NCBI GenBank assembly: GCA_963710375.1
Contig: CAVPZX010000002.1
Coordinates: forward strand, 512,001 to 576,000
DNA length: 64,000 bases
Source: Nitrospirota bacterium
GTDB lineage: Bacteria > Nitrospirota > Thermodesulfovibrionia > Thermodesulfovibrionales > Dissulfurispiraceae
Reading direction: 5' to 3'
Both the position numbers and the translations under genes were made by a program. This document shows, one piece after another, positions 8,289 to 29,256 of the stretch (position 1 is its first letter; every line of letters starts with the position of its first letter). The notes beneath the pieces were generated by a model. That model saw only the letters and a program-made list of their open reading frames with translations. It had not been told where the DNA came from and did no database searches.

Positions 8289-8425
8289 AAAATATCTTTA
8301 TATTTCAGCATCATGCTGGCATATTATGTTGAAAACTTCCGTCATCAAACTGTCATTCGTTTTCCCCGCCGGACTGATTCTTTTGTGAGCTTTCGTTCAT
8401 GTGCTTCTGCGCGGAGGGGCTTCTA

Positions 8426-9130: not shown

Positions 9131-9142
9131 ACGGCTAAATCC

Positions 9143-10047: not shown

Positions 10048-10188
10048 AATCTCTCCTCAGTAAATCTACAGTTTTGGTGCAATCGATGTCAATGAGAGCT
10101 TTAGGGAGTGTCGATTTGCCTCATCGGAAATCTATTCTAAAGTGAATATTGCTTAGTCCCAAAGCAAACTGTTAAACTTAGAGTCAAA

Positions 10189-12362: not shown

Positions 12363-12410
12363 TCTGGAATTTACGACGTGTGCTGACGTGGTTGAGCCGG
12401 ATTAAGCGTA

Positions 12411-13094
12411 ATGAGTCAGACATATGCCCCAGAAGTAGAAAAGGTGGCGCTTAAATTAAGGAAGGAATATGAGGACTTTGCCCACCATAACAAAAAGAAC
12501 CCCTTGGACGAACTATTCTTTATTCTGTGCAGTGTAAAAAGAAGCGAGAAGGTCTATCTCAAAGCCTACAAGTCTATAAAGCGAAACTTTCCAAGATATG
12601 AGCTGCTTGCCACGTCGTCCACTAAAAAGATAAGTAAAACTGTTTCTTGGGGCGGTCTGCAAAATCAAAAAGCAGCTATAGCCAAGGAAATTATCAGACA
12701 GCTGATAGTGAGTTTCGGAAAGCCAACTTTGGCCCCGCTCAAGAAAATGTCAGATGAAGAATGTGAGAGTTATCTTATGAGTCTCCCTGGCATAGGGAAA
12801 AAAGTCGCTCGATGTGTAATGCTTTATTCGCTTAATCGGCGAGTTTTCCCCGTGGATGCACACTGTTGGAGGATTTCACGTAGGATAGGATGGAATGTGA
12901 CGGGCCGGAACACCGACAGTTGCAGTAACAGAGCCATGGATCACTTGCAAGCGCGTATCCCTCCTGCACTGCGGTTTTCTTTACACGTAAACATGGTTTC
13001 ACACGGTCGCAAAATATGCACTGCCAGCAAGCCTAAATGCGGTGAGTGCGTCATAGTGTTTTTCTGTAAAAAGATCGGAGTAGCAAAAGGTTAG
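12411..13094 (+). CDS. HhH-GPD DNA glycosylase (endonuclease III-like) with a 4Fe-4S motif
   Basis: HhH LMSLPGIGKKVA, FPVDAH, C-terminal CTASKPKCGECVIVFFC. Confidence 0.9.
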   Translation: MSQTYAPEVEKVALKLRKEYEDFAHHNKKNPLDELFFILCSVKRSEKVYLKAYKSIKRNFPRYELLATSSTKKISKTVSWGGLQNQKAAIAKEIIRQLIVSFGKPTLAPLKKMSDEECESYLMSLPGIGKKVARCVMLYSLNRRVFPVDAHCWRISRRIGWNVTGRNTDSCSNRAMDHLQARIPPALRFSLHVNMVSHGRKICTASKPKCGECVIVFFCKKIGVAKG

Positions 13095-13231
13095 CGAGCC
13101 TTATTCTGAAGGACGAAGGCTTTCTATGCAGACGTTGTTAACTTGCAGTGGTTATCATCTGGAGCCAAATCCATGCTTAACATAGCTTCTTAGGATAAAT
13201 CCGTTTAACCTGACGCCAAACTGAGCGCAGC

Positions 13232-13286
13232 GAAGGCGGGAGGGAGGCAGGCACGGCGGCAGCCGGCCTGCCTCCCTCCCGCCTTC
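13232..13286. other. Perfect 21-bp GC-rich hairpin; candidate replication origin or terminator of the element
   Basis: gaaggcgggagggaggcaggc / gcctgcctccctcccgccttc with a 13-nt loop containing a cggc/gccg mini-stem. Confidence 0.6.
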
Positions 13287-13336
13287 TGATAACTTGATAT
13301 ATATTGGTTATAACTGCAACATGACTTCAAAATAAC

Positions 13337-13365
13337 TTGACATAATTTATTAACTATAGTAATAT
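13337..13365 (+). promoter_or_regulatory. Sigma70 promoter for the wHTH-wHTH-integrase operon, probably leaderless
   Basis: TTGACA (13337) - 17 nt - TAATAT (13360-65); ATG at 13372 with no SD; ATAACTTGA repeated at about 13289 and 13332. Confidence 0.6.
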
Positions 13366-13371
13366 TTAAGC

Positions 13372-13755
13372 ATGGTTAAGAGAATAATAGCTAAGATAAA
13401 TGAGGGGCAGGAAAGGACGCGATGGGGCAAAGGGACTATTGTATGTAAATCCATGGAAGAATTTGACAAGTATTTAAATCAATTTAAAGGGCAAATGGTC
13501 TCTCCTGGAACCGCTGCCTCAAGGTTAGGTGTTTCCCGTGCTTACATTAATCAGCTCGAAAAAGAGGGAAGAATAAGAGCGTATAGAATATGGAATGAAG
13601 ATATACATTGGGACAGTCTGCCTTTGAAGTGGAGGCCGTTTGTCGCTGTAAGGGATGTTTATATTTACATTCCTGATGAGGATATCGAGAGGATTAGAGA
13701 GGAGTTAATAAAAAAGGCCGAGAACAAGCTAAGAAAACTTAGAGGGAAAAAATGA
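13372..13755 (+). CDS. Winged-HTH DNA-binding protein (excisionase/regulator-like), paralog A
   Basis: VSPGTAASRLGVSRAYINQLEKEGRIRAYR; upstream of the integrase. Confidence 0.7.
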   Translation: MVKRIIAKINEGQERTRWGKGTIVCKSMEEFDKYLNQFKGQMVSPGTAASRLGVSRAYINQLEKEGRIRAYRIWNEDIHWDSLPLKWRPFVAVRDVYIYIPDEDIERIREELIKKAENKLRKLRGKK

Positions 13756-14117
13756 ACGAGCGCCATCTTACATATGAACTTGCTGAGAGGTTGAAAGTAT
13801 CTACTGAAACAAATATCTTCAGCAGGGGGACTATTGTTTGTAATTCCTGGGAAGAATTTGATGAGGCTATTAAGGATGTTGACTGTGGGCTTGTATCTCC
13901 GGGCGGCGCCGGTTTGCCGCGTTCTTATATTCATCAGCTTGAAAAAGATGGCTCGATAAGGGTGTTCAGAGTGATAGTTGATGGCAAGAGCTTTAAATAT
14001 TACCCTTCGCATGTACGCTTTTTGTATCCATCCAAAGATGTTTATGTTTTCATACCGGTGGATGATATTAACAGAATAAAAAGCATGATGAATAGGACGG
14101 AGGTGTCTTATGCCTGA
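13752..14117 (+). CDS. Winged-HTH protein, paralog B
   Basis: Aligns by eye to paralog A (GTIVCxSxEEFD, VSPG, RxYIxQLEKxGxIR, DVYxxIPxxDIxRI); ATGA coupled. Confidence 0.7.
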   Translation: MNERHLTYELAERLKVSTETNIFSRGTIVCNSWEEFDEAIKDVDCGLVSPGGAGLPRSYIHQLEKDGSIRVFRVIVDGKSFKYYPSHVRFLYPSKDVYVFIPVDDINRIKSMMNRTEVSYA

Positions 14118-15345
14118 AGGACAAGGCATAATAAGAGTTCCCAATAATCAGCGATGCCCTAAATGTAACGGAGTTTTCAAGCGCGTTATAGTGAAGGGCG
14201 CTTCCGGCATAGCCTATAGATGTCCTGATTGTTTGACCTTTCCTGACCGTTATTACCTGGATGTGCATCATAAGGGCGAAAGAATCCGAGTTTTTAGCGA
14301 TAAGCAGGGGAAGCCTTTAGATGCATTTCAGCGGGCCGTTGACCTTTTGAGTCATATTAATTATGAAATTGAAAATCATATTTTTGATTTTTCCAAATAT
14401 AAGAAATCGGAACAAAAAGAGTTTTATGTCTGTACGAAGCTTGATGAATATCTGGATCATAAGATAGACTCTCTTGCTCCGAGCTATCAGGCAGATTTTA
14501 GGAGGTATGTCGGCATTGCTAAAGACTTCTTCAAAACGACTGATGTCAGAGAAATAAAGAAGATCGATGTTATTAATTATCAAAAATATTTGAAGGAGAG
14601 TTTTAACATAGGCAATAAGACGATTAAAAATAATATCGATGTTTTTAAGGCTTTCCTAAACTATCTTAAAAACGATTTGGAAATAATATCCATTGTTCCA
14701 AGGTTTCCCGATATTGATATAGATATAAAACCTTTTAAATGGCTGACGCAAGAAGTACAGGTTAAGGCATATGAGTTGTGGCCTGATACTGATAAACCTA
14801 TCTTTGCTTTTTTAATGTTGCACGGTTGCCGTCCATCAGAAGCACGGGCTTTAAAATGTAAAAATATTGATCTTCAAAATCATACCATTACAATATGTGC
14901 GACCTTTTCAGGACATGTTTACAGGGAAAAAAGGAAGGGCAAAAAAGCGAGATTTGTAACAGTTCCAATTCATCCGGAATTATATGGATTCATTGTTGAG
15001 AGAGTTAAAAATAATTTACCTGAGGCTTTTGTTTTTATAAATCCTAATACCGGCAAGCATTATTGTGAAAATAGTTTACGGATCATATGGGCTACTGTTC
15101 GGAAAAGTACGGGACTCGATAATAGTGTCCGTTTGTATGATGCCACAAGGCATTCATTTGCAAGCAACCTTGTAAATAGTGGATCGTCTATATACAAGGT
15201 TTCAAAATTGCTTGGTCATAGCTCGGTAAAGATGACAGAGAAATATGCGCATTCAGAGATTGAGAGTCTGAGGGTTGATATAGAAAAGCTATCATTAAAC
15301 TGTCATCCTACTGTCATCAAAAAGGTTTCAGGTGATAAAAAATAA
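14110..15345 (+). CDS. Tyrosine recombinase/integrase with an N-terminal CxxC-CxxC motif
   Basis: HGCRPSEARAL, RLYDATRHSFAS, LLGHSSVKMTEKY; ends next to attR. Confidence 0.95.
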   Translation: MPEGQGIIRVPNNQRCPKCNGVFKRVIVKGASGIAYRCPDCLTFPDRYYLDVHHKGERIRVFSDKQGKPLDAFQRAVDLLSHINYEIENHIFDFSKYKKSEQKEFYVCTKLDEYLDHKIDSLAPSYQADFRRYVGIAKDFFKTTDVREIKKIDVINYQKYLKESFNIGNKTIKNNIDVFKAFLNYLKNDLEIISIVPRFPDIDIDIKPFKWLTQEVQVKAYELWPDTDKPIFAFLMLHGCRPSEARALKCKNIDLQNHTITICATFSGHVYREKRKGKKARFVTVPIHPELYGFIVERVKNNLPEAFVFINPNTGKHYCENSLRIIWATVRKSTGLDNSVRLYDATRHSFASNLVNSGSSIYKVSKLLGHSSVKMTEKYAHSEIESLRVDIEKLSLNCHPTVIKKVSGDKK

Positions 15346-15377
15346 TTACAATACAATTAGTTATATTTGGTTGTTGG

Positions 15378-15403
15378 GGGTTCGATTCCCGCCGCCTCCA
15401 CCA
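15378..15403 (+). repeat. attR core (duplicated ssrA 3' end)
   Basis: 26/26 identity with 8263-8288. Confidence 0.95.
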
Positions 15404-15536: not shown

Positions 15537-15971
15537 TTATTTTACTACTGGATACCCTGCTTCTTTCCAGGCCTTGAGTCCTCCAGTCATATTTACAGCA
15601 CTTTTATACCCAAGGTCATTCAGCGTCTTTGTCGCCAACGGGCTTCTGCGGTCCGTCCCGCAATATACAATAATTTTTGCGTTTTTATCGGGTATGATTG
15701 TGGCCGCCTTAAACTCCAATGTGCCACGTGAAATATTTATCGCCCCGGGTAGATGTCCTTGTTCAAATTCCTGCTTGTCAGTTACATCAAGGAGCATGAT
15801 GTTCTCTTTTGACTCAATCATTTTTTTGACATTGTCTATTGATACTTCCGCAATCGACGCCTTTGCCTCCTTTACCAGTTGTTCCGGCGTCATATCTGCG
15901 GCCAAGGCAGGACTGATCATCGAAATCGCGAAAATCACGGCAACCAAAACCAGCGTTACTCTTTTAAGCAT
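15537..15971 (-). CDS. Secreted rhodanese-like domain protein
   Basis: Signal peptide, LLDV...EFEQGHLPGAINI, IIVYCGTDRRS, MTGGLKAW; RBS aaggagg. Confidence 0.9.
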   Translation of the reverse strand: MLKRVTLVLVAVIFAISMISPALAADMTPEQLVKEAKASIAEVSIDNVKKMIESKENIMLLDVTDKQEFEQGHLPGAINISRGTLEFKAATIIPDKNAKIIVYCGTDRRSPLATKTLNDLGYKSAVNMTGGLKAWKEAGYPVVK

Positions 15972-16143
15972 GTTTGCCTCCTTTAAAGTATTTGTTTCAA
16001 TAGTATCAGAATTGTGCGATTCCAACCACCTCCACCAAAGCTACCTGTCCGCTTTCTATCCGAAATTAAACATGCCGGCTGGCTTAGTGCAGATCAATTC
16101 TCAAGAAAAACAGCATTCGGCTTCTTCATATCCGTACCACAGG

Positions 16144-16788
16144 TCAAGTTTTGAAAATAGTTATCGCTTTTGCCGCCAAGCCCGCGTGAGCGACATCTTC
16201 CGGGGTAGTATTGGTTATGGGTATGTCATTGCCAAGGAAATCCCTTCCGGCTTCTTTGTAACAATACCGCACAAAACCACTGCAGTAAGTGGCGTGAGGA
16301 TCGTTCATGGGATTTTCCTGCCACTGCTTCTTGGTGATAATTGAGAACCACGTACCCATGAGTTCCTGTATCGGATAGAGAACCTGTTCGTTAACGAGTT
16401 CCAGCGCTGTAGCGAGAACTTGGTGCAGCTGGTCATCGGCGAGGCCGAAATCGATTGCTGCAGCATTTTCGACCTTGGAGTCGCTCCATTTGCCTATCCA
16501 GTTTTCCTGTGCTCCGTTTCTGACCTGGGGCTCGAAAAAGTTAATCTTCAGGTCGCTTTCGAATAGATAAGGGCTTTTTGTTACTGATTTACCTGGTCCG
16601 TGCCTGTCGAGCCGCAAGTCTCCCATGATGAAGCAGTGTGACCACAAAGATGGGGAATGGTCAGACGTAATAGCCCTTTGCGCATCCCTAATGGCAAGCC
16701 CCACGGCGTCTTTGGTGCCCACAAGACCGATGAGCCCCGGCTTATAATGAGCAGTGAAGAATTCAAGCAAAGCATCGTCAACTGCCAT
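16144..16788 (-). CDS. Permuted papain-like (YiiX/YaeF, NlpC/P60) cysteine hydrolase
   Basis: His before Cys: WSHCFI...YCSGFV...TTPEDV. Confidence 0.6.
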   Translation of the reverse strand: MAVDDALLEFFTAHYKPGLIGLVGTKDAVGLAIRDAQRAITSDHSPSLWSHCFIMGDLRLDRHGPGKSVTKSPYLFESDLKINFFEPQVRNGAQENWIGKWSDSKVENAAAIDFGLADDQLHQVLATALELVNEQVLYPIQELMGTWFSIITKKQWQENPMNDPHATYCSGFVRYCYKEAGRDFLGNDIPITNTTPEDVAHAGLAAKAITIFKT

Positions 16789-16919: not shown

Positions 16920-17312
16920 CTATATAGGGGAATGCCTGTACGCTTTTCCACCTAATGCCGAATTAACGATCCTGACAATATCTTCAGGTTTAAATGGCTT
17001 ATTGACGCAATCTACCGCGCCAAGGTCTCTGGCAGCCTGAAAAAAATCCATATTGCCCTGGTAGAAACCTGACATCGCAATAATTTTTGCTTCAGGAAAT
17101 TCTCTCATGATCTCGCGTATAGTTTCCAGCCCGTCTTTTCCCGGCATATATATGTCGGCAAGAACGATGTTTGTATTGGTTCGGCGGTAGGACTCTACGC
17201 CTTCTTTGCCGTTGGAGGCTACATAAACTTCATAATTCAGATGTTCGAAAATCTCTTTTAGAAGATTTCTCAAAGAGATGTCGTCGTCAATGATGAGGAT
17301 GCTTTTTGCCAA
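16920..17312 (-). CDS. Stand-alone response regulator receiver
   Basis: ILIIDDD, DIYMPGKDG, IIAMSG, KPF; TTG start after RBS aaggagggg. Confidence 0.9.
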   Translation of the reverse strand: MAKSILIIDDDISLRNLLKEIFEHLNYEVYVASNGKEGVESYRRTNTNIVLADIYMPGKDGLETIREIMREFPEAKIIAMSGFYQGNMDFFQAARDLGAVDCVNKPFKPEDIVRIVNSALGGKAYRHSPI

Positions 17313-17346
17313 TACCCCTCCTTGCCGAGTGAAATCAGTTAACTTT

Positions 17347-17392
17347 TTATAACAGATGCCTTGTATGGAAAACAATTACCCGAAAGTAGTAT
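17347..17392 (-). promoter_or_regulatory. Operator TACTTTCGGGTAAT + 20 nt + TGTTATAAA (copy 1)
   Basis: 17363-17392 is 28/30 identical to the reverse complement of 23911-23940; same spacing to TGTTATA. Confidence 0.75.
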
Positions 17393-17469
17393 ATGCTTGG
17401 AAATGCACTACGCGTTTTAAAAAAATCCCCACAAATTTGCAACTTCGCAATAATGGGAGCGCAGGCATT

Positions 17470-18042
17470 TTAATGCTTATCAGGTTGAATAATTCCCAGG
17501 CTAATAGCAGTATTCATGGCCTGGGCCCTGTTTGTGACATGAAGTTTCTTATATGAATGCTTCAGGTGGGCCTTTACAGTCGACTCGGATATGTTCAATA
17601 GTTCCCCTATTTCCTGATTGTTTTTACCCTCTTTGACCCAGCGTAAGATTTCAACCTCACGAGGGGAAAGGACGCCCTTGCAGGAATTTTCTATTGCTTT
17701 CTTTATCAGTTCCACCAATTCATCGTATGGAGCAGTTTTTTGTATGAAATCAAGTGCTCCTCCATGAACAGCTTTAACAGCATCGGGGATAGTACCATAA
17801 GCCGTGAGCATTATTATCGGCACACTGCTATTGATATGCTTTAATGCCTTAACTGTATCGATACCGTTTATCCCCGGTATTTTCATGTCTACAATGGCCA
17901 AATCAGGAATGAACTCCTTAAAAGAGTCTATAGCCTCAAATCCGTTCTTAGCCTCCAGCACCTTAAACCCCTCAAGCTGGAAAACTAACCTGGCCGCCCT
18001 TCTGAAATCATCGTCGTCATCAACGATCAGAATACTATGCAT
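17470..18042 (-). CDS. Response regulator, REC plus LuxR-type HTH
   Basis: ILIVDDD, DMKIPG, MLTA; LSPREVEILRWVKEGKNNQEIGELLNISESTVKAHL. Confidence 0.93.
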   Translation of the reverse strand: MHSILIVDDDDDFRRAARLVFQLEGFKVLEAKNGFEAIDSFKEFIPDLAIVDMKIPGINGIDTVKALKHINSSVPIIMLTAYGTIPDAVKAVHGGALDFIQKTAPYDELVELIKKAIENSCKGVLSPREVEILRWVKEGKNNQEIGELLNISESTVKAHLKHSYKKLHVTNRAQAMNTAISLGIIQPDKH

Positions 18043-18058
18043 AATCTCTCCCTTTCTT

Positions 18059-19435
18059 TCAGGCATCATTTTCAGTCTTCTGAGTCAGAAGTGGCAAATA
18101 TACTTTAAACGACGCACCCTCTCCCCTGATTGAATCGACGTTTATAAAACCATTGTGCTCTTTTATTATACCGTATACTATGGCAAGGCCTAGTCCCGTT
18201 CCCTTACCCATCTCTTTTGTTGTAAAAAACGGCTCGAATATCTTTGATTTTATTTCAGCGTCAATGCCCTCTCCGGTATCCTGTACCGTGATACAGGCAA
18301 AGCGTCCGCCTGCCCTCAGTCCGAACTTCTCTGCATCTTTCCTGTCAATAGTGACTTCCTCTGTTTGGATGGTAAGGGTGCCTCTCTTACTCATGGCATC
18401 CAGTGCATTGTTGACAAGGTTCATCACTACCTGTTCGAGTTGCAGCCTGTCTCCCTTAATCATAACATCCCCTTCAGACAGTATTTCTCTGTATTCATGC
18501 CGCTCTGCAATAAGCGGCTCCACCGTTTGTCTGAGCGATTTCACCACGCTGTTTATATCAAGAATAGCAAATTTGTTTCTTTCCGTGTTGCTGAAAGCCA
18601 GCAGGGATTCAACGAGTTTCTTCGCTCTATCAAGAGAGCCCTCGGTAAATGTGACGTATTCAGACAGGTTATTGTCTTGCAGCTTCTTTCTCAACACGTA
18701 CAGATACCCCTTTGCAGCACCCAAAACGCTGTTGAAGTCGTGAGCGATGCCGCGCGCAAGAGTCCCGACAGCTTCCATTTTTTCCATCTCAGCCATTCTG
18801 CGTTCGAACGGCACTGTAATTCTCTTAACCGTAAAATAAATTCCCAAAGCTATCGAAACAATGAAAAGAACAGCAATAGCAGCGTTTAACAAAAGCACCT
18901 TTTTTAGAGCGGCATTTAATTTTACCTTATCAATAACAAGATACACGTAACCAATGGTCTTTTTAATTTTTTTGGATTTTTCGGCGAAAAGGGCTACCTC
19001 GCTGTTATCGGGGACTTCAATTGCTATAGACCTGTTGAATTCAAAAAAATTCTTCGACTCTGTCATGGAGGACACGGGGGGGAAAGGCGCGCAGCTGCCA
19101 GCATGCCCATGCATTTTGCTCCATAGGAAAAGGACTTTGCCGTTGTCATTTAAAACAGTTACGGACACGACGCCTTCCTGCATAATAATTCCCTGCACAA
19201 CTGTTTCGATCATCCCTTTATCTTCAGCAAACACCGCAGTCCTAAGGCTTTCGGAGCATATAGCCGCAAGCGACAGTCCTTCTTTGATCAATGATTCCTT
19301 TATCTCGTCCTGCTCCCTGTGCACTATAATGACTGTAGAAAGTATAGACAAAAGTATCGTAATCGATGTCAACCATATAAAGAGCCGCAAACCGATACCA
19401 TGGCGGGATGAACGTGCACGGCTATCGGTCCTCAT
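18059..19435 (-). CDS. Membrane sensor histidine kinase
   Basis: Two TMs with a periplasmic loop; GIAHDFN, QVVMNLVNNALDAM, DTGEG, FEPFFTTK, GTGLGL. Confidence 0.95.
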   Translation of the reverse strand: MRTDSRARSSRHGIGLRLFIWLTSITILLSILSTVIIVHREQDEIKESLIKEGLSLAAICSESLRTAVFAEDKGMIETVVQGIIMQEGVVSVTVLNDNGKVLFLWSKMHGHAGSCAPFPPVSSMTESKNFFEFNRSIAIEVPDNSEVALFAEKSKKIKKTIGYVYLVIDKVKLNAALKKVLLLNAAIAVLFIVSIALGIYFTVKRITVPFERRMAEMEKMEAVGTLARGIAHDFNSVLGAAKGYLYVLRKKLQDNNLSEYVTFTEGSLDRAKKLVESLLAFSNTERNKFAILDINSVVKSLRQTVEPLIAERHEYREILSEGDVMIKGDRLQLEQVVMNLVNNALDAMSKRGTLTIQTEEVTIDRKDAEKFGLRAGGRFACITVQDTGEGIDAEIKSKIFEPFFTTKEMGKGTGLGLAIVYGIIKEHNGFINVDSIRGEGASFKVYLPLLTQKTENDA

Positions 19436-20403
19436 TGCAAGACCTCCGTCTTTCTAAAAACACGGTTAGGGATCCGTATGCCGAGTTTTGAAGCTATTTT
19501 ATGGTTAATGACCAGGAGCGCCTTTCTTGCATAGTAAACAGGGGCGGGCTTCACATCACCGTTTTTAAGAACGGACCATGCCATCTCCCCGGTCTGTTTG
19601 CCTATGTCAAAAGGGTCTATCTCAAGGGACAAAAGTGCACCCATTTCGAGAAATTTGCGGGAAAAAGTCATCAGCGGTATTTTGTTTTGATAAGAAAACG
19701 AAACCATTGACAGTACAGAATCATCAGCGGCAACAGTGGTGTCCGGTATCATCATAAGAAGGTCTACCCTTCCTGTAAGAGATGTGAGCGCGGCAGGCAC
19801 ATCTCTTGCCGAAGGTACGTCTTTCAGAATAATTTGCAGCCCTTTTTCTCTTCCTGCTTTTAACAGCTCTTGCGAATAAGCTCCGGACAGTGCGGGATTG
19901 ATTATGAGCCCTATCCTGCTGATGTGAGGTAAAATCTCAGCAGCGGCATCCAGATATTTGTCAGGGTCGACATCTGTGCTGACCCACCATATGTTATCTT
20001 CTTTGGCCTGCTTGTAAGGATAGACAAGCATTGTGAAGAGGCGGACCGTTTTTAATGATTTGACTGCTTTGTATGCTTTAGACCCGATGGCGACCACTGC
20101 ATCAGGGGACGAATCGAGGATATTGCCCACAATATTATTGACGTTTCCCCTCGAAAGATCGATGACTTTGACAGAGCAGTTGCAGGAGTTTTCAAATCCT
20201 TCAAGGGCATCATTATACAGTTTGATATTATCGCTTTTTACTACGGTTATATCGTAAGCGCTAGCCTCCCCTGCCGCAAGAACCTGCAAAAGCAGACATA
20301 TTGCACAGAATGCAATGGGGAAGGCCCGGTGAAGGGCAAAAGGTATCTTACCGATGTCTGAACTCGATATCCTGCAAAACAAACGCCTTAAGAGAAGCAT
20401 CAT
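19432..20403 (-). CDS. Periplasmic ABC-type substrate-binding protein with no permease nearby
   Basis: Signal peptide ending ASA-YD; PDAVVAIG, RIGLIINP, MIPDTTV, GALLSL...IGKQTG, LVINHKIASKLGI. Confidence 0.85.
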   Translation of the reverse strand: MMLLLRRLFCRISSSDIGKIPFALHRAFPIAFCAICLLLQVLAAGEASAYDITVVKSDNIKLYNDALEGFENSCNCSVKVIDLSRGNVNNIVGNILDSSPDAVVAIGSKAYKAVKSLKTVRLFTMLVYPYKQAKEDNIWWVSTDVDPDKYLDAAAEILPHISRIGLIINPALSGAYSQELLKAGREKGLQIILKDVPSARDVPAALTSLTGRVDLLMMIPDTTVAADDSVLSMVSFSYQNKIPLMTFSRKFLEMGALLSLEIDPFDIGKQTGEMAWSVLKNGDVKPAPVYYARKALLVINHKIASKLGIRIPNRVFRKTEVLQ

Positions 20404-21637
20404 AATAATCCTTGCGGCAGTCTACTCCGGCAACGTCTCCTTTCGCAATAAAGCGCATATACCTGCAACCGCCGAAGCAAAGCGGGAGATAGCAGCATGA
20501 AAGGCACTGCTCATTTTTCCAGATGTCCAGCGCATAAGTATCATTGTATTTTTTGCACCCTTCTTTCAACGTTCCTATCTTAAAGTCTTCCCTCCCGATA
20601 AAACCAGGACACTTATAGAGGTCGCCGTTATAGTTGACTACAAAAAAATTTCCGCTCTCTATCACACACAGGGACGGCTTGATAAATTGTGTTTTGAAGC
20701 CGCGTTTCATTATGGCTTCCCTCAAAAAAACGCCTGCTTCAATTACCCATTGCTCACTATTGGACGTGCACCACTCGGCGTAGTCCGGAATAACAAATGC
20801 CTTGTTAACTGCTGTAACAGGGTCGAATTTAACAGATTTGATTACATCGGGCGTAAGCCCTTCGTCAATAAGATAATCGAGCAGTTTGGGGAATTCAGTA
20901 TAATTGTTGCGGGCATAATTACCGCCGATCTGTATGCTGATATCCCGGCAAACCTGCTTGAGATTCTCAATAATTATATCAAAAGAGCCCTTGCCTGATC
21001 GAAAGGGGCGTGAAACATTATGGGTGGCACGGGGACCGTCGAGGGTCACCTTTGCTCCCACAAGTCCCAAAGGTTTTAGCTGCTGCACAACCTGGCTGGT
21101 CAGCAGTGTGCCGTTTGTTACAAGATTAAAGCTGTAGCGCAATCCCTTATTTGCCGCGAGGTCTTTGAGCCCACCGGACATGCGGACTATCGATTTAATG
21201 CTCAATAGCGGTTCTCCGCCGTAAAAAGTTACGAAGATCTCTTTCTTATTATCATCAATGTTTGCTTCGATAAAGTTGACTAAATCACTCTCTGTCTCCT
21301 CTGACATAAAGTGGTGGCCTTTGACAGCGCCTTCGAAACAATAAGGACATGCCAGGTTGCAGGATAGGTTCAAAACCACGATTAGCGAGAGTTTATTGTT
21401 CAACTCATCGCGACCCTTCATGTAATCCTTCATTGCCGCTGATTCCTGCTCAATGCTGGGCACCATGAAGCCAAGCCTATCCAGAGCAGAGCGGATATCA
21501 GGGCTTACGTCACCGCCGAGCACATCCTGAAGAACAGAATCTTTGAGCGCTATGGTTGCTGCATTCTTTGTGGAATAAAGAATGTTGCGGTCTTCTTTAA
21601 GACTATAAATTTTGCAATATTGGGATAGTTCGCTCAT
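20348..21637 (-). CDS. Radical SAM/SPASM peptide maturase (geopeptide maturase-like)
   Basis: CNLACPYC, FYGGEPLL, VTNGTLL, TLDG; SPASM C...GDLYKC...CLSCCYLPLCFGGC...C; N-terminal RRE-like region. Confidence 0.9.
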   Translation of the reverse strand: MSELSQYCKIYSLKEDRNILYSTKNAATIALKDSVLQDVLGGDVSPDIRSALDRLGFMVPSIEQESAAMKDYMKGRDELNNKLSLIVVLNLSCNLACPYCFEGAVKGHHFMSEETESDLVNFIEANIDDNKKEIFVTFYGGEPLLSIKSIVRMSGGLKDLAANKGLRYSFNLVTNGTLLTSQVVQQLKPLGLVGAKVTLDGPRATHNVSRPFRSGKGSFDIIIENLKQVCRDISIQIGGNYARNNYTEFPKLLDYLIDEGLTPDVIKSVKFDPVTAVNKAFVIPDYAEWCTSNSEQWVIEAGVFLREAIMKRGFKTQFIKPSLCVIESGNFFVVNYNGDLYKCPGFIGREDFKIGTLKEGCKKYNDTYALDIWKNEQCLSCCYLPLCFGGCRYMRFIAKGDVAGVDCRKDYYDASLKAFVLQDIEFRHR

Positions 21638-21648
21638 AAAAATTAGAG

Positions 21649-21672
21649 TGGAGGGGCGCTATGGCCCCTCCA
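21649..21672 (-). terminator. Stem-loop between the precursor and maturase genes
   Basis: 9-bp stem tggaggggc/gcccctcca, 10 nt after the peptide stop codon. Confidence 0.6.
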
Positions 21673-21682
21673 GAATTCTTTG

Positions 21683-21772
21683 TTAATCAAGAAGTGGCAC
21701 CAGAGATCCTACGCAGCAAAACTGACCAGCATCGATTTGCTCCTTTGTATAACCCTCGAATAACACCTCCAT
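21683..21772 (-). CDS. RiPP precursor peptide, 29 aa (geopeptide-like)
   Basis: MEVLFEGYTKEQIDAGQFCCVGSLVPLLD*; RBS AGGAGG with 8-nt spacing; directly upstream of the rSAM/SPASM gene. Confidence 0.85.
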   Translation of the reverse strand: MEVLFEGYTKEQIDAGQFCCVGSLVPLLD

Positions 21773-21822
21773 GTGATATCCCTCCTGCTATTGAACTGGT
21801 CCTTCTAATGAAGGACTTGAGG

Positions 21823-23703
21823 CTAGAACGACATCCTTACCCCTCCCTCCACCCAGCGGTGGGGGTTTCTGTACAAACCGATAGCATATTGGTCGCCGTT
21901 AAATATATTGTTTACTGCAAAGAATCCCTCCCAGACAACCCACTTGTTTCTTGCCAATACTTTTGATATATTGGCATCCACGATTAGGGCATTATAATTG
22001 CCGCCATTTGAAGCTTCAGAGGTCCACCAGATGTAGTGTCCCTTCACCAATGCTTTCAGGGAATCCCTATCATCGTATTTCAGTCCAAAATCGTACGTAC
22101 ATGTAGGCGTATTCAGGATAATGGAATTGGTGTTGATATTACGGGCCCCGATAAAAGAGGCGCCTGCTGTAAGGGAGATATTATAGATTGGCGTTGTGCT
22201 GATCTCGGATTCTATGCCTTGCCGCCTGTCCTTGTCCCTGTTGACTAACACCGATGTGGTGGAAGTCACAGGCTCTAAGGCAATGGCATTGCTGACTATG
22301 TGGTGGAACATCATCACCTTCAAATTCGTGAAAGGGATAACTGTGGTCTCAATCCCGGCCTGGTAGGAAGTGACCCCCTCAACTTTGAGATTAGGGTTTG
22401 AAATGATAGAACTGCCATTGCCATATGTGTAAGACAACGGGGGCACATTAAACCCCCTGGCAGCATCCGCGCGCAGAAGGAAAACATCGCTAAACTTGTA
22501 TGTCGCGCCGAATGAAGGGCTTATAAAATCGCCGTTGGTGTTGGTGTAGTCATATCGAAGGCCGGGCGTAACAGTAAGACGGGGAACTGCCGTGATAGAA
22601 TCATTTACGAACACGGCGGCCTTGTCAAGGCCCTTCTTAAGACCTGATACGCCATTCGAACGAAGTATGCCGGAGTCATAATCACTGCCAAAAACAACAT
22701 TATGGACATCGGATTTCCAATTAGCTTTAATGGTACCCCCTATATCGGTATCATTGAAGTAATTTCTCAGAATATCCTGACCCGATGAAATGAGGGAATA
22801 GTCCTGGTGGCGCTGCTGCTTCAAGGCATGCAGGGCGAGGCTGAAATCGATACTGTCGGCCACTTTTGTATTGAATGACAGAGACGAACGCAGGTAAGTG
22901 AAAGCGTCTCCAATATCCAGTCCGTCTGGTTGATCTTCCAGGATGCCGCGGCTTCCCTCAGTGTAGCTCAAGCTAAGGACCACATCAGAGACGCCTTCAT
23001 GATAACTTAATTTTGTGAAAACATTGTTATTCTCAGTTGCATTGTTCAGCCTGAACCCGTCTGATACAAAGCGGCCGGCGTAAAAATAGTAGCCGAATTG
23101 CGAGAGCCTGCCATATATTTCGGCCCGCGAATCGTTAGTGGTGCGTTCCCCGTACATAATGTCAAGCTCGCCTTTCGCTTTCTTTGTGGTGTCAGCCGAC
23201 TTTGTTATGATGTTGATAATTCCACCAAGAGCAGAGCCCCACGCCGATGATGCAGGCCCCTTGATGATCTCGATACGCTCGATATTTTGAACAGGGATCG
23301 CAGCTATGTCAGCAGTGTTATCCGATAAATTATTGATAATCACACCGTCTATTGCTACAGTGACGTGCCTCGAATCAGAGCCCTGCAAAGACACTGATGC
23401 AATACTGCCGGGCCCTCCCGTAACCAGGACCTGCACACCTGTTATGTTATTAAGCACATCGACGAGAGTATGCGCCCCTGACAGTTTAATGTCCTCAGCG
23501 GTAATAACAGTCACATTCTCGGCTGTCTGTGACAGCGGTTTGGATGATCTTGTAGCGGTTACAACAGACTGGTCACTAAACATGCTGACAAAGGCCTTTT
23601 CCTGCTCGTCGTCAGTCTGCGCTAATACATGCATCGGAAGACCTATATGAAGCACTAATAATAAAAAGAGCGAAAGGGTAAAAGGCGACACACCCGACTC
23701 CAT
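21823..23703 (-). CDS. TonB-dependent receptor (start codon uncertain)
   Basis: VVTATRS, VTVITAEDI, VAIDGV, IERIEIIKGPASSAWGSALGGIINIITK, C-terminal Phe. Confidence 0.93.
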   Translation of the reverse strand: MESGVSPFTLSLFLLLVLHIGLPMHVLAQTDDEQEKAFVSMFSDQSVVTATRSSKPLSQTAENVTVITAEDIKLSGAHTLVDVLNNITGVQVLVTGGPGSIASVSLQGSDSRHVTVAIDGVIINNLSDNTADIAAIPVQNIERIEIIKGPASSAWGSALGGIINIITKSADTTKKAKGELDIMYGERTTNDSRAEIYGRLSQFGYYFYAGRFVSDGFRLNNATENNNVFTKLSYHEGVSDVVLSLSYTEGSRGILEDQPDGLDIGDAFTYLRSSLSFNTKVADSIDFSLALHALKQQRHQDYSLISSGQDILRNYFNDTDIGGTIKANWKSDVHNVVFGSDYDSGILRSNGVSGLKKGLDKAAVFVNDSITAVPRLTVTPGLRYDYTNTNGDFISPSFGATYKFSDVFLLRADAARGFNVPPLSYTYGNGSSIISNPNLKVEGVTSYQAGIETTVIPFTNLKVMMFHHIVSNAIALEPVTSTTSVLVNRDKDRRQGIESEISTTPIYNISLTAGASFIGARNINTNSIILNTPTCTYDFGLKYDDRDSLKALVKGHYIWWTSEASNGGNYNALIVDANISKVLARNKWVVWEGFFAVNNIFNGDQYAIGLYRNPHRWVEGGVRMSF

Positions 23704-23841
23704 CGAAAGTGACGTTGAAATCATTAATATGATACATGTTCCCCACCGTAAAAGTATATGTACTCTTTTTTTAAAAAACTGTACAGTCAAACCCCTTATT
23801 TTACAGCAAAATTCCACCACTTTTAACCATATTAATAGTTA

Positions 23842-23890
23842 TTTTATAACACATCGAATGTCCATCTGGATATTACCCGAAAGTAGCATG
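23842..23890 (-). promoter_or_regulatory. Operator CTACTTTCGGGTAAT + 20 nt + TGTTATAAA (copy 2), pointing into the receptor-peptide operon
   Basis: Minus strand reads catg CTACTTTCGGGTAAT atccagatggacattcgatg TGTTATAAAAT. Confidence 0.75.
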
Positions 23891-23910: not shown

Positions 23911-23958
23911 ATAGTACTTTAGGGTAATTGTTTTCCATACTGAAAACCTGTTATATGT
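23911..23958 (+). promoter_or_regulatory. Operator TACTTTAGGGTAAT + 20 nt + TGTTATATG (copy 3), pointing into a small ORF
   Basis: atag TACTTTAGGGTAAT tgttttccatactgaaaacc TGTTATATG. Confidence 0.72.
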
Positions 23959-24046: not shown

Positions 24047-24211
24047 ATGATAGTTGAAAGGGTATTAAACGACATTCCAGACAGTGATGTGGCTCAGGTA
24101 GTAATTAATATTGAGAGTGAAGGTTGCAGTGCAATTAAGATACAACAAGCAGATGGAAATTGGACAATAATAGCTACCTGTCCAGTAAATCAGCATCCAA
24201 CAACGCGCTGA
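24047..24211 (+). CDS. Small hypothetical protein (54 aa)
   Basis: RBS gaggagg before ATG 24047; MIVERVLNDIPDSDVAQVV...GNWTIIATCP. Confidence 0.65.
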   Translation: MIVERVLNDIPDSDVAQVVINIESEGCSAIKIQQADGNWTIIATCPVNQHPTTR

Positions 24212-24397: not shown

Positions 24398-24919
24398 TTA
24401 TTTAATGACACCGCAGGCAACACGGTCACCACCGCCGCCAAGTTTTTGAGGGCTGTCGGAGTAATTGTCGCCGCCGGCGTGTATCATAAGCGCGCGGCCC
24501 TTGAGATCATCTAATTTCAGGCGCGGAGCAAGCACCGGTAGAGTCGCATTCCCCATGGCATCGACACAGAGCGCCGGGAGATCGCCGAGGTGTCCCTCTC
24601 CATAAGGGCCCTCATGTTTGCCCGTTCCGGCAGGGTCATAGTGGCCGCCTGCAGCCATGCCGACCATTTTTTTGCCGTCTTTTTCGACCATACCGCAATC
24701 AGCGTTTTGATGCACATGGAAACCGTGCAAGCCGGGGGTAAGACCGCTCAGTTTGGGACTGAAAATAATGCCGTAAGGACTTTCAGACGCGGTCACCGTA
24801 CCTATAGGCTTGCCGATCCCCCCGCTGTCGATCAGATTAACCTGGATCACCATATCTGCCGCGTAAGCCGAAACAATACCCAGAAGCAAACAGAGCACAA
24901 TCAATAACACTGTCTTCAT
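24398..24919 (-). CDS. sodC: Cu/Zn superoxide dismutase, periplasmic
   Basis: [44 protein letters not shown]. Confidence 0.96.
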
Positions 24920-25031
24920 AATTATACCCTCCTTTTTTTCGCCCTTGCGTGTTATAAGGCGCTCTTTGACAATTGTACAGCAATCCCGGGACGAAATCTA
25001 TTCAGCTGGTTGCCTCATCAAAAAAAATCAT

Positions 25032-26201
25032 TCAGCTCGCCCTCAAGGCATCCACAATATTCATGCGTGACGCCCTGACAGCCGGCAGCACACCGCCCAC
25101 GAAACCCATTATAAGCGAAAAAAACATGGACTGATAAATGATCTTTATAGTCAGTGAGAAGGAGAAAGCAAGCTCTGAAAAGGTTTGGAAATTCATGGTT
25201 GAAATCGTAATTAGCTGCATAAAAGAAGCGAAAAACAGCCCTATGCAACCGCCGGCAAGGCCTAGCAGCAGGGATTCCATGAGAAAGGCAGTTAGGATAT
25301 TGCGCCTTTGAAAACCGAGGGCCCTCAATGTGCCGATTTCATTGGTCCTGTTCGCCACCGCAGCATACATGGTTATCATTGCGCCGATTGTGGCCCCTGT
25401 CGAAAATATGATTGTTAGCGAGAGCCCCAGAACTCTGAGAAACTTCGCCATAACCCTGGATTGCTCTTCATAATACACACTCTCCCTTTTCACCTCGACA
25501 GTCATGCGTGGATCATTCTCGAGGCGTAACTTAATCTTGTCGAAATCCGCGGGATCACTCAACTTAAATGTAACCGAGGAATAGACAGGCCTGCGAAAGG
25601 CTTGCATGAGCTGGTCCACATCTCCCCATATTTCGGAGCTGAAACCGGTGTTTCCTGCGTCGAATATGCCTACGACATTCCAGTCCCGCATGCCGAAACG
25701 GAGTGTTTCGCCAAGGCCTCCTCCCTTGAACCTCCTGGCTATACTTTGTCCAGCCATGATTTCTGAGGAGCCCGGTCGCGGCATGCTCCCTGCCGCGAGT
25801 TTTACCTGTGGTCTCAGCAAGAGTGAATTTTCAGTTGTCCCCCTTATAACAACATTGGACGGTTTGTTGCTGCCGCGTTTAGGAAGGTTTATAAGCACAA
25901 CCAATTCCCTGGCAACCAGGCGGTTGCCGTTCACCCCTATGGCTATTTCAGGCTGCGTCTCGACTATGGAAGCGGAAAGTCTGTCAATCCCGCTCTGCAC
26001 CTCGGAATCTGACCCTTTTCTGATAACTATGCAATTGTCATAGGAGCCCGTATTTACAAGGGTTTTCTTCAGCCCCTCGGCAAGCATCAATATGGAAGCA
26101 AAAACAAATACCACAAGCGCCATGCCTAATATCGTAAGCACATTCGTCAGCCTTCGCGTCCAGAGGTTGCGGATACTGTATGAAAAAGGGATTCTCCCCA
26201 T
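25032..26201 (-). CDS. ABC transporter permease (MacB/FtsX family)
   Basis: N-terminal TM, periplasmic domain, RTNEIGTLRALGF, PAVRASRMNIVDALR. Confidence 0.92.
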   Translation of the reverse strand: MGRIPFSYSIRNLWTRRLTNVLTILGMALVVFVFASILMLAEGLKKTLVNTGSYDNCIVIRKGSDSEVQSGIDRLSASIVETQPEIAIGVNGNRLVARELVVLINLPKRGSNKPSNVVIRGTTENSLLLRPQVKLAAGSMPRPGSSEIMAGQSIARRFKGGGLGETLRFGMRDWNVVGIFDAGNTGFSSEIWGDVDQLMQAFRRPVYSSVTFKLSDPADFDKIKLRLENDPRMTVEVKRESVYYEEQSRVMAKFLRVLGLSLTIIFSTGATIGAMITMYAAVANRTNEIGTLRALGFQRRNILTAFLMESLLLGLAGGCIGLFFASFMQLITISTMNFQTFSELAFSFSLTIKIIYQSMFFSLIMGFVGGVLPAVRASRMNIVDALRAS

Positions 26202-27359
26202 TTAGCCTATACTCCTCAGTCCGTCAGCTATACGTATGTGTACGCAACGCCAGGCCGGCACAATAGCAGCGACCACCCCAACCAGCAGCGCGGCTGCGAT
26301 ATCCATATAAATAGTTGTGGTTGCCACATTGAACACCGGGAAATAGTCGCCCATGGCCTCGCCGAACGCCTTAGCAACAGGAAATGTGGCTGCAATGCCT
26401 GCTGCGCCGCCTATAATAGCGATGACGATTGATTCTCCAAATATCAGGCCGGCCAGGTGCGATCCGCCGAACCCGAGTGCTTTAAATACTGCATATTCCC
26501 CAAGCCGCTCGCGGGCATTCATAGCCATTGTATTAGCCATAACAGCCATGATTATAATGATTACCACAAAGGACACTAACTGGATAGCAACGACTATAGC
26601 CTCCGACATGGAGATAAACCCCAGCGCGAAAGCCTTTTCCGTTTCGGTCAATGTTTCTGCAAGTGAGTTTTTGAACATTTTATCTACTGTCTGTGAGACC
26701 TCGGCTGCAAGGCCGGGGTTTTTAATACCGATCAAATAGAAACCGACCTGATCTGCTCTGAGCGACGCAGTTTTTTTGAGTGATTCATTGAGATAATCCC
26801 AGTGGAACAGGAATTCCGTTTCATCAGTGCTTTTTTCCCTGCCGTGATAAATGGCACGCAGCACAAATTCCCAGTTGCCTGGGAAGATGGTACCCTTCAG
26901 CGTAATCGTATCACCTATTTTCCAGTGGTATTTCTCTGCGATTTTTCGGCCGGCGACCGCGGCCTTGCGGTCCCGGACAAAAGCCTCCTGCTGGTCAGGG
27001 GGGATCAAAAACTCGGGGACCAGCGCGAGATAGCTTTTAGGTTCTACAGCGAAATTAGGGAAAAAGTGTTTCTCGTCAATGTAAATACCGCCAAACCAGT
27101 TTGCACGTGCCACGGTTTTCACTCCCTGTACATGGCTAATCTGTTCCTCATACGAGAGGGGAAGCGTAAAGACCAGTGAGATCGCATTCCTTGTTACAAG
27201 ACGGGTCGCCGAAGAGGCCTCAACTCCTGCATACCAGGCGCTTACAACTGTCCTGAGAAGACCGAAGGCAAGTATGGCGACAGTGATGCCGACAATAGTG
27301 AGCCATGTCCGGAGTTTGTGACGAAAAGCGTTCTTAAAAATGAGCTTCAGGATGAACAT
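26202..27359 (-). CDS. ABC transporter permease (MacB/FtsX family)
   Basis: RERLGEYAVFKALGF and the FtsX-type C-terminal TMs. Confidence 0.92.
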   Translation of the reverse strand: MFILKLIFKNAFRHKLRTWLTIVGITVAILAFGLLRTVVSAWYAGVEASSATRLVTRNAISLVFTLPLSYEEQISHVQGVKTVARANWFGGIYIDEKHFFPNFAVEPKSYLALVPEFLIPPDQQEAFVRDRKAAVAGRKIAEKYHWKIGDTITLKGTIFPGNWEFVLRAIYHGREKSTDETEFLFHWDYLNESLKKTASLRADQVGFYLIGIKNPGLAAEVSQTVDKMFKNSLAETLTETEKAFALGFISMSEAIVVAIQLVSFVVIIIIMAVMANTMAMNARERLGEYAVFKALGFGGSHLAGLIFGESIVIAIIGGAAGIAATFPVAKAFGEAMGDYFPVFNVATTTIYMDIAAALLVGVVAAIVPAWRCVHIRIADGLRSIG

Positions 27360-28038
27360 TTAATACACCTTTTTCCAGATGCTTTATTACATGGGCCTTT
27401 TCAGCAGCTCGAGGGTCGTGCGTTACCATGACGATAGTCTTGCCTGACTCGGCATTGAGGCGTTCCATCAAATCAAGTATCTCTCGTGCGGAAACACGGT
27501 CAAGATCACCTGTCGGCTCATCGGCCACTAGTATGGCCGGGTCGGTTATTACGGCACGTGCTATGGCTACGCGCTGCTGCTGACCGCCGGAGAGCTGTCC
27601 CGGGTAGTGGTCCATCCTGTCGGCAAGACCTACTATTGAAAGAGCGACTTCCGCATGTTCGCGCCGCTCACTTCGCGAGAGCCCGGTCAACAGAAGCGGC
27701 AACGCAACATTCTCGAAAGCGGTAAGAACCGGGATAAGATTGTAAAACTGAAAGATAAAACCCACATTGTCAGCCCGCCAGCGTGCAAGCTCAGTTTCGG
27801 TCAGAGTCGTTATATCGATAGCTCCCACTTTGATAGTACCGCTGTCAGCCTTGTCAATGCCGGCAATAAGATTGAGCAGGGTGCTCTTGCCGGAGCCTGA
27901 CGGTCCCATAAGAGCCAGGAACTCGCCGTCTTTGATATCAAATGTGAGGTCGTTCAGCACAGGCACTATTTGGGAGCCTTTATGGTATGATTTGCTCAGA
28001 TTCTGTATTTCAACAATCGGCCGTGGTTCTGCTTCCAT
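27334..28038 (-). CDS. ABC transporter ATP-binding protein (LolD/MacB-like)
   Basis: GPSGSGKS, LSGGQQQRV, ADEPTG, VTHD. Confidence 0.96.
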   Translation of the reverse strand: MEAEPRPIVEIQNLSKSYHKGSQIVPVLNDLTFDIKDGEFLALMGPSGSGKSTLLNLIAGIDKADSGTIKVGAIDITTLTETELARWRADNVGFIFQFYNLIPVLTAFENVALPLLLTGLSRSERREHAEVALSIVGLADRMDHYPGQLSGGQQQRVAIARAVITDPAILVADEPTGDLDRVSAREILDLMERLNAESGKTIVMVTHDPRAAEKAHVIKHLEKGVLNVHPEAHF

Positions 28039-29256
28039 CTATTTTTCTACAACTTTTATCTTCGTGCCGTTTCTTAATCCGGACGGCGGATTGGCTGCTA
28101 ATTTGTCCCCTGCCTGTACTCCTCCGGTCACCTCCAGCATATCGCCTCTCTTCGCGCCGATCGTTACCGGAGTCTCTATCGCCCGGTTGCCCCTGATAAT
28201 AAAAACAACCTTTCGATCAGAACGGCTTACAACGGATGCAGGGTTAAGGGCGGTGAACGGCGTTTGCTCATCCCGTCCTGCCGGCCTGGAGAGAAATGCG
28301 ACTTTCGCGCTCATTTCCGGCAATATGCGTTTGTCCTCGTCAATAAAACGCACCTTCACCAATACGGTCGCCTTGCTCCGGTCAGCGGTAGGGACAACCG
28401 TGCTGACCTCTCCCCTGAAGCGGGATTCCGGCAATGCATCGAGCTGAAGCACGCACGGCTGTCCCACCCTGACCTGCTGCAGGTTGGATTCCGATACATC
28501 AGCCTCCACTTCGAGAGAACTCATATCAGCAATAGTTACCACTGCGGCCTTCGCATTTACGGCAGCACCTATCGGAGTAACGATATCACCTACATCGGCA
28601 TCTTTCGTTAAAACCACAGCATCAAAAGGTGCGCGTATCAGCGTGTATTCAATAGCAACGTTCGCGCCGTTGAGCGTAGCGATTGCAGCCTTGATGGCAG
28701 CTTCAGCACCTTCCACCGCAGCCTTTGCCTTCTTGTATCGAGCTTCAGCAGTATCATAGTCAGCCTGGGCCACGTACCCTTTTGACAGAAGATCCCGCTC
28801 TCTGTTCAGCTCGAGCGTTGCATCATTCAATTCCGCCTTCGCCTGTTCAAGGTTTGAGCGGGCAACATTAAGATTGGCAGCAGCCTGGTTCTTTTGAGCA
28901 GTAACGTCCTCGTTCTCGAGTCGTGCGATAAGCTGACCTTTTTTCACTACACTACCTTCCTGAACACCCAGCCATACCAGTGTGCCGGTGACCTTTGAAG
29001 CAACAGCAGCTTTGCGTTGGGCCACTACATAGCCGCTTGCATTTAAAAGCGTAAAGGCCTGAGATGGATACATCTTTGACACTGTCACCGCCTCTACTTC
29101 CACCGACGGGGTAAGAGCTCCCTGAAAATAGAGGAACAACAATACAAAAAGCACAACCACAGCTGCTATCAGGGCAGGAGGAATCCTGCGCCGTGAGCGT
29201 CGGGGCGTTTCAGCAACCTTTTGTATCTTCAATTTTGAGAGATCTTCCTGCGCCAT
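28039..29256 (-). CDS. Efflux periplasmic adaptor (membrane fusion protein, MacA-like)
   Basis: TM anchor, lipoyl-like halves (VKKGQLIARLE; IRAPFDAVV), coiled coil. Confidence 0.92.
   Translation of the reverse strand: MAQEDLSKLKIQKVAETPRRSRRRIPPALIAAVVVLFVLLFLYFQGALTPSVEVEAVTVSKMYPSQAFTLLNASGYVVAQRKAAVASKVTGTLVWLGVQEGSVVKKGQLIARLENEDVTAQKNQAAANLNVARSNLEQAKAELNDATLELNRERDLLSKGYVAQADYDTAEARYKKAKAAVEGAEAAIKAAIATLNGANVAIEYTLIRAPFDAVVLTKDADVGDIVTPIGAAVNAKAAVVTIADMSSLEVEADVSESNLQQVRVGQPCVLQLDALPESRFRGEVSTVVPTADRSKATVLVKVRFIDEDKRILPEMSAKVAFLSRPAGRDEQTPFTALNPASVVSRSDRKVVFIIRGNRAIETPVTIGAKRGDMLEVTGGVQAGDKLAANPPSGLRNGTKIKVVEK

Follow-up and report, generated by a model that had tools for sequence, protein, structure and literature searches.

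Peptide quorum sensing is a textbook theme of Gram-positive bacteria, with agr and ComQXPA as the peptide autoinduction loops of monoderms, and SCIFF peptides, or ranthipeptides, reportedly take part in clostridial quorum sensing. Two further precedents involve peptides that are ribosomally synthesized and then post-translationally modified (RiPPs). In streptococci, a RiPP made by a radical S-adenosylmethionine (SAM) enzyme, a RaS-RiPP, is the quorum-controlled output, while the unmodified shp/rgg peptide is the autoinducer (PMC9389541, in part); RiPP uptake through TonB-dependent receptors also has a precedent (PMC8183687, in part). Our literature searches, whose coverage of subscription papers was poor, returned no description of a system combining a radical SAM peptide with a TonB-dependent receptor, nor of Gram-negative peptide quorum sensing of this form. 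Here we analyze an operon in a 64,000-nucleotide (nt) stretch of the Nitrospirota contig CAVPZX010000002.1 (positions 512,001 to 576,000; hereafter the window), which places a short peptide and its putative modifying enzyme among genes for an outer-membrane receptor, a periplasmic binding protein (the binder), a histidine kinase and a response regulator. It is a real, conserved and uncharacterized peptide-making and sensing system with a candidate self-activation box; ranthipeptide or quorum-sensing identity is at most a candidate assignment, drawn from comparison of sequences.

The closest named family is that of the geopeptides, defined by a precursor model (TIGR04229) and an enzyme model (TIGR04280) at the level of hypothetical equivalog; its description covers peptide and enzyme only, and a literature search on the name and accessions found no paper. 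The window shares the family's layout: its maturase scores 539.5 bits on TIGR04280 over the full length (cut-off 400), and a short Cys-Cys open reading frame (ORF) lies directly upstream. The window precursor obtains no score on TIGR04229 (cut-off 30 bits). By its performance on homologues, this 22-position model is a narrow one: it gives 12.8 bits for the genome's second precursor, misses the homologue at locus L077 from the Geobacterales-side search, and misses or scarcely matches all four homologues tested. Since TIGR04229 misses homologues too, we name the 29-residue ORF geopeptide-type by position and motif. The operon comprises the following features:

21823-23820, minus strand: TonB-dependent receptor of the geopeptide-linked clade (PF07715 and PF00593); the start may be internal, with an ATG at 23703
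21683-21772, minus strand: geopeptide-type precursor of 29 residues; a leader with the V-L-x-x-G family motif, Cys-Cys and a hydrophobic tail of 9 residues
21649-21672, minus strand: terminator-like 9-bp hairpin between precursor and maturase (folding z -4.4)
20348-21637, minus strand: radical SAM/SPASM maturase (TIGR04280, 539.5 bits)
19432-20403, minus strand: permease-less periplasmic binder (PF04392, two-lobed type I fold)
18059-19435, minus strand: membrane histidine kinase, with two hydrophobic segments flanking a periplasmic single-Cache domain, and His231
17470-18042, minus strand: REC-LuxR response regulator (REC and LuxR domains), the likely binder of the box described below
16920-17312, minus strand: lone single-domain receiver (REC domain)

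ORF and family-profile checks confirmed all seven genes as co-oriented on the minus strand, in keeping with the first-pass annotation of this DNA. Its view that several of them overlap held in part: binder and kinase share 4 nt, and the kinase/regulator overlap vanishes because regulator and lone receiver start at 18042 and 17312, each preceded by a ribosome site. Maturase and binder overlap if the first ATG is taken; overlaps are fewer than longest-ORF calls imply. The same annotation had described a binding protein without permease and a kinase with a periplasmic loop; indeed, none of the seven genes encodes a permease, and the loop between the hydrophobic segments is a Cache domain. This domain matches 5O7J (E 6e-8), the detector domain of GacS (PMC8639471, in part), and was modelled as a single Cache fold. 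Unlike most homologues, the window kinase gave no HAMP match. Among the closest non-orthologous matches of the regulator's receiver domain, three are sigma-54 regulators of other geopeptide loci, a kinship that would fit a cognate kinase pair whose output domain has been swapped.

How tightly do peptide and sensing genes belong together? We searched TIGR04280 in two sets of 301 genomes each, one from the window's phylum and the other from the phylum to which a Geobacterales record belongs; it exceeded the cut-off in 32 and 22 genomes, respectively. Sixty-seven maturase loci were fetched with wide flanks (61 matches over cut-off and 6 from other searches), and a receptor was found beside 63 of them, a binder beside 59, a kinase sensor domain beside 54 and all three beside 51, with many of the misses at contig ends; the locus profiles were built from the same 67 loci, which makes the scores partly circular. 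Of the 44 fully flanked loci, which come from two phyla, 38 retain all three of these genes, in orders and orientations that differ between loci. Of the other six, two lack just the kinase, two have a receptor alone, one has none of the three and one is the YfiR variant. The synteny expected from the window thus extends to these three genes and the peptide/maturase pair, and the alternative that such pairs usually occur without sensing genes did not hold. The regulator is another matter: it is of LuxR type in 15 of the 44 loci and a sigma-54 regulator in 11, and the lone receiver is missing from the corresponding position in the relative L001, so that neither can be kept as a core part of the circuit. 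We read the lone receiver as a regulon output.

The grouping of peptide and maturase with sensing genes lies far beyond chance. That the two sets are unrelated neighbours is accordingly a reading to which we give almost no credence: one maturase, L064, stands without any partner and the sensing genes also stand alone, but the linkage persists despite inversions and reorderings, which largely refutes it.

The peptides themselves look diversified around a fixed chemistry. A precursor was located upstream of 64 of the 67 maturases, with Cys-Cys in 63 and Cys-x-Cys in one, and the 59 precursor tails compared were all different around the constant Cys-Cys. Same-genus relatives, whose maturases are 70-84% identical, have almost identical leaders and different cores, a pattern that would resemble pherotypes. 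The spacer between precursor and maturase folds better than shuffled sequences (z < -2) in 40 of 55 loci, and the hairpin likely yields an excess of precursor transcript. In eight precursors (L036, L039, L040, L042, L047, L052, L103 and L107), the leader is swollen into histone H1-like lysine/alanine repeats before the Cys-Cys, and the maturases of L086 and L087 carry about 260-300 additional C-terminal residues (693 and 726 residues in total).

Compared with the ranthipeptides (CteA/CteB, PapA/PapB), the maturase is similar in several respects. Its best match among solved structures is CteB (5WGG, E 4.8e-37), its radical SAM motif CxxxCxxC is formed by C93, C97 and C100, and the seven SPASM cysteines are present and invariant among 29 homologues. 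It falls below the cut-offs of the PapB model (143 of 340 bits) and the SCIFF model (106 of 425 bits). At the six active-site-proximal positions defined for CteB (PMC10288494, in part), it reads F/Y/T/T/P/G versus F/F/T/S/H/Q, so that the first four positions resemble those of CteB, whereas the last two are P/G instead of H/Q. Further differences are a possible linker-cysteine ligand, a peptide with only two cysteines, and a diderm host with a dedicated outer-membrane receptor. The linker cysteine, C290 here and present in 26 of 29 homologues, bears on the first auxiliary cluster, which has an open site in CteB and is completed by a linker cysteine in SuiB (PMC6231123, in part). By analogy with SuiB, C290 could fill this site, and this SuiB-like feature in a CteB-like enzyme means that the cluster comparison does not settle the chemistry. 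Judged from the sequences, a thioether formed from the Cys-Cys pair is likely.

The peptide/enzyme pair was already known as a named NCBIfam family; what is new here is a candidate operator, or feedback box, with the following elements:

23874-23885, minus strand: 12-bp operator-like box, an imperfect palindrome (TAC-N6-GTA) with its centre at about -43.5 relative to the point where the operon transcript is predicted to begin
23843-23851, minus strand: extended -10 element, TGn-TATAAA, 22 nt past the box
23915-23926, plus strand: second copy of the box, facing the opposite way, with its own -10-like element (divergent promoter)
24047-24211, plus strand: ORF of 54 residues under the divergent box, in no Pfam family
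17377-17388, minus strand: third box, in front of the lone receiver gene, with an extended -10 at 17346-17354

The 14-nt motif occurs three times in the window, where 0.06 copies are expected: two copies stand back to back ahead of the receptor gene, and the third precedes the lone receiver gene. The whole genome holds seven exact copies, all intergenic (shuffles give 0-1), and six of these are followed after exactly 22 nt by TGnTATA, against a background of 3e-4 per position. This spacing puts the box centre at about -43.5, in the range of LuxR-type activator binding; LuxR sites are centred around -42.5 (PMC4471428, in part). The candidate box thus sits at a class II activator position in the operon promoter and in five others. 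Among 111 relatives, high copy numbers are confined to the window genome (G000, 7) and to G604 (18), G611 (8) and G612 (15), the rest having 0-2, like the reversed control; these four are also the only genomes in which the regulator's match covers the DNA-binding domain (67-86% identity), and both the box enrichment and such a match are missing from six genomes of the same genus. All four share the same box spacing upstream of the receptor gene. The inverted pair is kept in L001 (the locus in G611, which equals G302) and in G604, the latter also keeping the box arrangement at the receiver, and the maturase is present in G604 and G612.

A related palindrome holds a like position in another family. 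There, the five loci whose regulators have the most similar helix-turn-helix carry a palindrome with the arm CGGGTA in common with the box, 24 nt before a TATA upstream of the receptor. Taken over both groups, the arm lies 24-25 nt before the TATA in all seven loci whose regulator is of this helix-turn-helix type, and in none of the 59 remaining loci. Behind the boxes in the window genome lie a Crp-type regulator, a PilZ protein, a sigma-54 regulator with a chemoreceptor cluster, the lone receiver and small ORFs; those in G611 include HDOD, receiver, Cas6, RHS and PAS genes. In the second geopeptide locus, described below, a copy with two mismatches stands ahead of the YfiR-like gene, and in G604 a YfiR-like gene comes after the box-driven receiver gene. 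Box placement and co-occurrence with the regulator suggest positive feedback on the operon, a hallmark of autoinduction, which would add to the peptide-sensing circuit proposed by the first-pass annotation.

Several points count against this feedback reading. The box patterns were derived from the loci they fit, and the related genomes are not independent; the genome has four other LuxR-type domains. In a second lineage, 9 genomes have the full-length regulator and 6 of these the strict box, which also occurs in 4 of the 52 others, while control patterns occur in 6 of the 61; in G024, which carries both box and regulator, the maturase gave no match. At the sigma-54 loci, a sigma-54 site upstream of the receptor was not found in 9 of 10, nor was a box-like promoter signal. 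Positive autoregulation, finally, is widespread among two-component systems and says nothing about which ligand is sensed.

Two further promoter observations stand apart from these. At G000:C2:449690, what follows a box is a decayed version of the lone receiver gene's beginning, which marks this site as a duplicate of a promoter fragment. L038, with a NarL-type regulator, has a different, perfect palindrome at about -43 upstream of the receptor, which is not common to other NarL-type loci.

Taking these elements together, we propose the following chain. The maturase would cross-link the Cys-Cys peptide into one or more thioether rings, the hairpin keeping the precursor in excess, and the dedicated receptor clade would recognize the variable peptide core outside the cell. 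The binder would then probably catch the acidic-hydrophobic N-terminal tail of the receptor and contact the Cache domain of the kinase, whose His231 would phosphorylate the REC-LuxR regulator. This in turn would activate its own operon together with the Crp-type regulator, PilZ, the sigma-54 regulator/chemoreceptor cluster and the lone receiver, the net result being a peptide autoinduction loop through the box in the operon's promoter. That the modified peptide is a signal, by this relay or by direct binding, is what we consider somewhat better than an even bet; the exact route, with the receptor tail relaying through binder and kinase and with self-activation, is a more tentative proposal. 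The design recalls the monoderm loops in uniting a modified small peptide of variable core, a kinase and a regulator in one operon with candidate positive feedback. Unlike them, it has no dedicated exporter or peptidase, a departure from peptide quorum sensing within an otherwise linked and conserved set of signal, sensor and regulator genes, and the outer membrane would be crossed, or signalled through, by way of a TonB-dependent receptor and a periplasmic binder.

The receptor is the part most closely tied to the peptide. Searching with a profile of the receptor returned 40 matches that exceed 550 bits, the next full-length match lying at about 330, and by a count made by hand 31 of these 40 adjoin a geopeptide-type maturase and 9 do not. 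In the receptor tree (FastTree, midpoint root), a split with support 100 separates 35 rows, all peptide-less, from a geopeptide side of 69 rows, of which 60 are linked to a maturase, 2 to a sub-cut-off relative of it and 7 to neither. The window receptor has an acidic-hydrophobic tail before its TonB-box strand. Among receptors linked to a binder, 38 of 40 from the clade and 21 of 21 distant ones carry this tail motif, which was found in 0 of 11 BtuB-like receptors; the survey left 40 of 121 receptors unparsed and used a loose rule set after the data had been seen. From these counts, the binder may read the receptor tail instead of the peptide.

A second geopeptide locus in the same genome (G000:C2:1055994-1064476, L073) is instructive here. 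It holds a receptor, a Cys-Cys peptide and a maturase, with genes upstream for a YfiR-like protein, a CHASE8 hybrid kinase and a sigma-54 regulator apparently split into two ORFs. PF13689 thus lies beside a CHASE8 sensor at L073; the window has no PF13689, and CHASE8 is matched only at E 0.002. The tail of the YfiR-linked receptor differs from that of the binder-linked clade receptors. A permease-less periplasmic protein beside a Cache-type membrane sensor is also the arrangement of the LuxP/LuxQ and YfiB/YfiR/YfiN relays; what differs here is that the binder belongs to PF04392 and that input comes from a TonB-dependent receptor. A profile comparison of the binder with the YfiR-like protein gave no significant match.

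Alternatively, the receptor could import the modified peptide and the binder could be its periplasmic receptor, presenting it to the kinase in the manner of LuxP/LuxQ and closing the same loop. The predicted fold of the binder is intact and two-lobed (predicted local distance difference test, pLDDT, 93.9), as in the Trp/Phe/Tyr binders that are its best structure matches (3LFT, 3LKV and 6HNI), a type of PF04392 binder described before (PMC6816091, in part). It shares the fold at 20-23% identity with the aromatic binders SP1069, VC_1101, CD0873 and TrpX, but reaches only 86 of 390 bits on the TrpX model NF041285 and is followed by a kinase instead of a permease. The polar motifs common to 3LKV and 6HNI, whose residues presumably grip the bound amino acid, are exchanged in the binder family for conserved hydrophobic ones, which would suit a hydrophobic peptide tail. 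The window binder moreover belongs to a clade of 36 rows, 34 of them maturase-linked. Sub-cut-off maturase relatives at L069, L070, L072, L098 and L108 adjoin a family-5 binding protein (PF00496), mostly followed by a kinase, a pairing that speaks for import and binding; a precursor was not found at four of these five loci. On the other hand, the same binder family works with peptide-less receptors, the YfiR-like protein takes its place at the second locus, and binders of relatives are 82-83% identical, no more diverged than the maturase, though the core does differ in the only one of these relatives whose precursor could be read. Because of the tail survey, the YfiR exchange and the peptide-less use of the binder, we favour the relay through the receptor tail, itself held tentatively, over import and binding, which we regard as rather unlikely.

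This brings us to further observations that weigh against the proposed loop. Binder homologues occur in 146 and 93 of the 301 genomes of the two phyla, compared with 32 and 22 for the maturase, so that binder and kinase are no preserve of the peptide and the circuit first proposed is supported only in part. We collected 60 regions around high-scoring binders lacking a known maturase neighbour, a subset of such matches picked by score, and counted by eye a sensor domain in 49 and a receptor in 37. The six genomes G031, G086, G106, G217, G244 and G197 (98-100% complete) have close relatives of binder and kinase, most with a clade receptor, and the maturase was not found in them, one of the searches having had no positive control. 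Clade receptors without a nearby binder retain the tail in 6 of 6 cases. Finally, no exporter or protease recurs near the maturases in the fetched flanks: only 6 loci have a half-size MFS protein after the maturase, and tblastn found no match for this protein in the window genome, which has one C39-domain match elsewhere.

These findings are the basis of a third reading, in which the chain senses some other outside ligand or the state of the envelope, as the YfiB/YfiR/YfiN chain does, and the peptide would be one of the regulon's outputs, or a periplasmic or membrane modulator of the chain that stays with the cell. The kinase sensor domain also heads chemoreceptors and GGDEF-EAL proteins, and since the trio is common without the peptide and feeds such varied outputs, receptor, binder and sensor form a general module. 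Clade members persist in maturase-less genomes, where they may be listeners or may respond to a ligand other than the peptide, and export machinery is not conserved. What speaks for the peptide is that the receptor, rather than the binder or kinase, is bound to it most tightly, even at loci without binder and kinase, and that the diversified cores suggest recognition. In addition, L130 (in G539) retains receptor, binder, kinase and a Cys-x-Cys precursor without an adjacent maturase, the maturases lying elsewhere in that genome. We judge this third reading improbable, slightly more so than import and binding.

Less likely still is that the peptide carries a metal or cofactor and that the loaded form, imported by the receptor, induces its own synthesis, as in the pyoverdine and methanobactin systems. 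The Cys-Cys pair is nearly invariant, and the NCBIfam models that the receptor matches best describe B12, haem and siderophore receptors, each with a score well under its cut-off (138 of 599.7 bits on the BtuB model TIGR01779, which places it outside BtuB); by eye, the nearest receptor group in these genomes looks BtuB-like. Upstream of the receptor, 19 of 66 regions reach 13 of 19 Fur-consensus matches, versus 15% of shuffles. Yet the best Fur match in the window is 12 of 19, no riboswitch, cobalamin-type included, was found at the window, and no inner-membrane uptake system recurs near the maturases. The hypervariable peptide tails also argue against a carrier, as do the box-linked genes, which encode regulators, PilZ, HDOD, a chemoreceptor, Cas6 and RHS instead of metal handling.

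The surroundings of the operon hold a few further features. Downstream of the receiver lie an ORF of 214 residues (16144-16788) without a family above cut-off and a rhodanese gene (15537-16025). Upstream, on the same strand, are a Cu-Zn superoxide dismutase and a four-gene MacB/FtsX-type ABC exporter with an HlyD-type adaptor (24398-29256). A tmRNA gene (7942-8288) and a weak tmRNA-like fragment (15321-15403) flank an HNH/MTaX1 nuclease, an HhH-GPD glycosylase and a tyrosine integrase (14110-15345); the region 7942-15403 is likely an element integrated at the tmRNA gene, its end about 1.5 kb from the operon.

Returning to the peptide as autoinducer, relayed through the receptor tail, we advance a wider proposal, with the reserve due to a leading candidate that falls short of an even chance: geopeptides would be quorum-sensing pheromones of anaerobic Nitrospirota and Thermodesulfobacteriota, cyclized by the radical SAM enzyme and relayed to the kinase by a binding protein put to a new use, with strain-specific cores on which maturase-less relatives eavesdrop. 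The box offers a ready reporter and binding target, so that the proposal is testable before the structure of the product is known. If it is true, an orphan RiPP family would gain a function, the widespread trio of receptor, binder and sensor would gain a role, and sediment anaerobes, including Geobacterales, would gain a signalling language.

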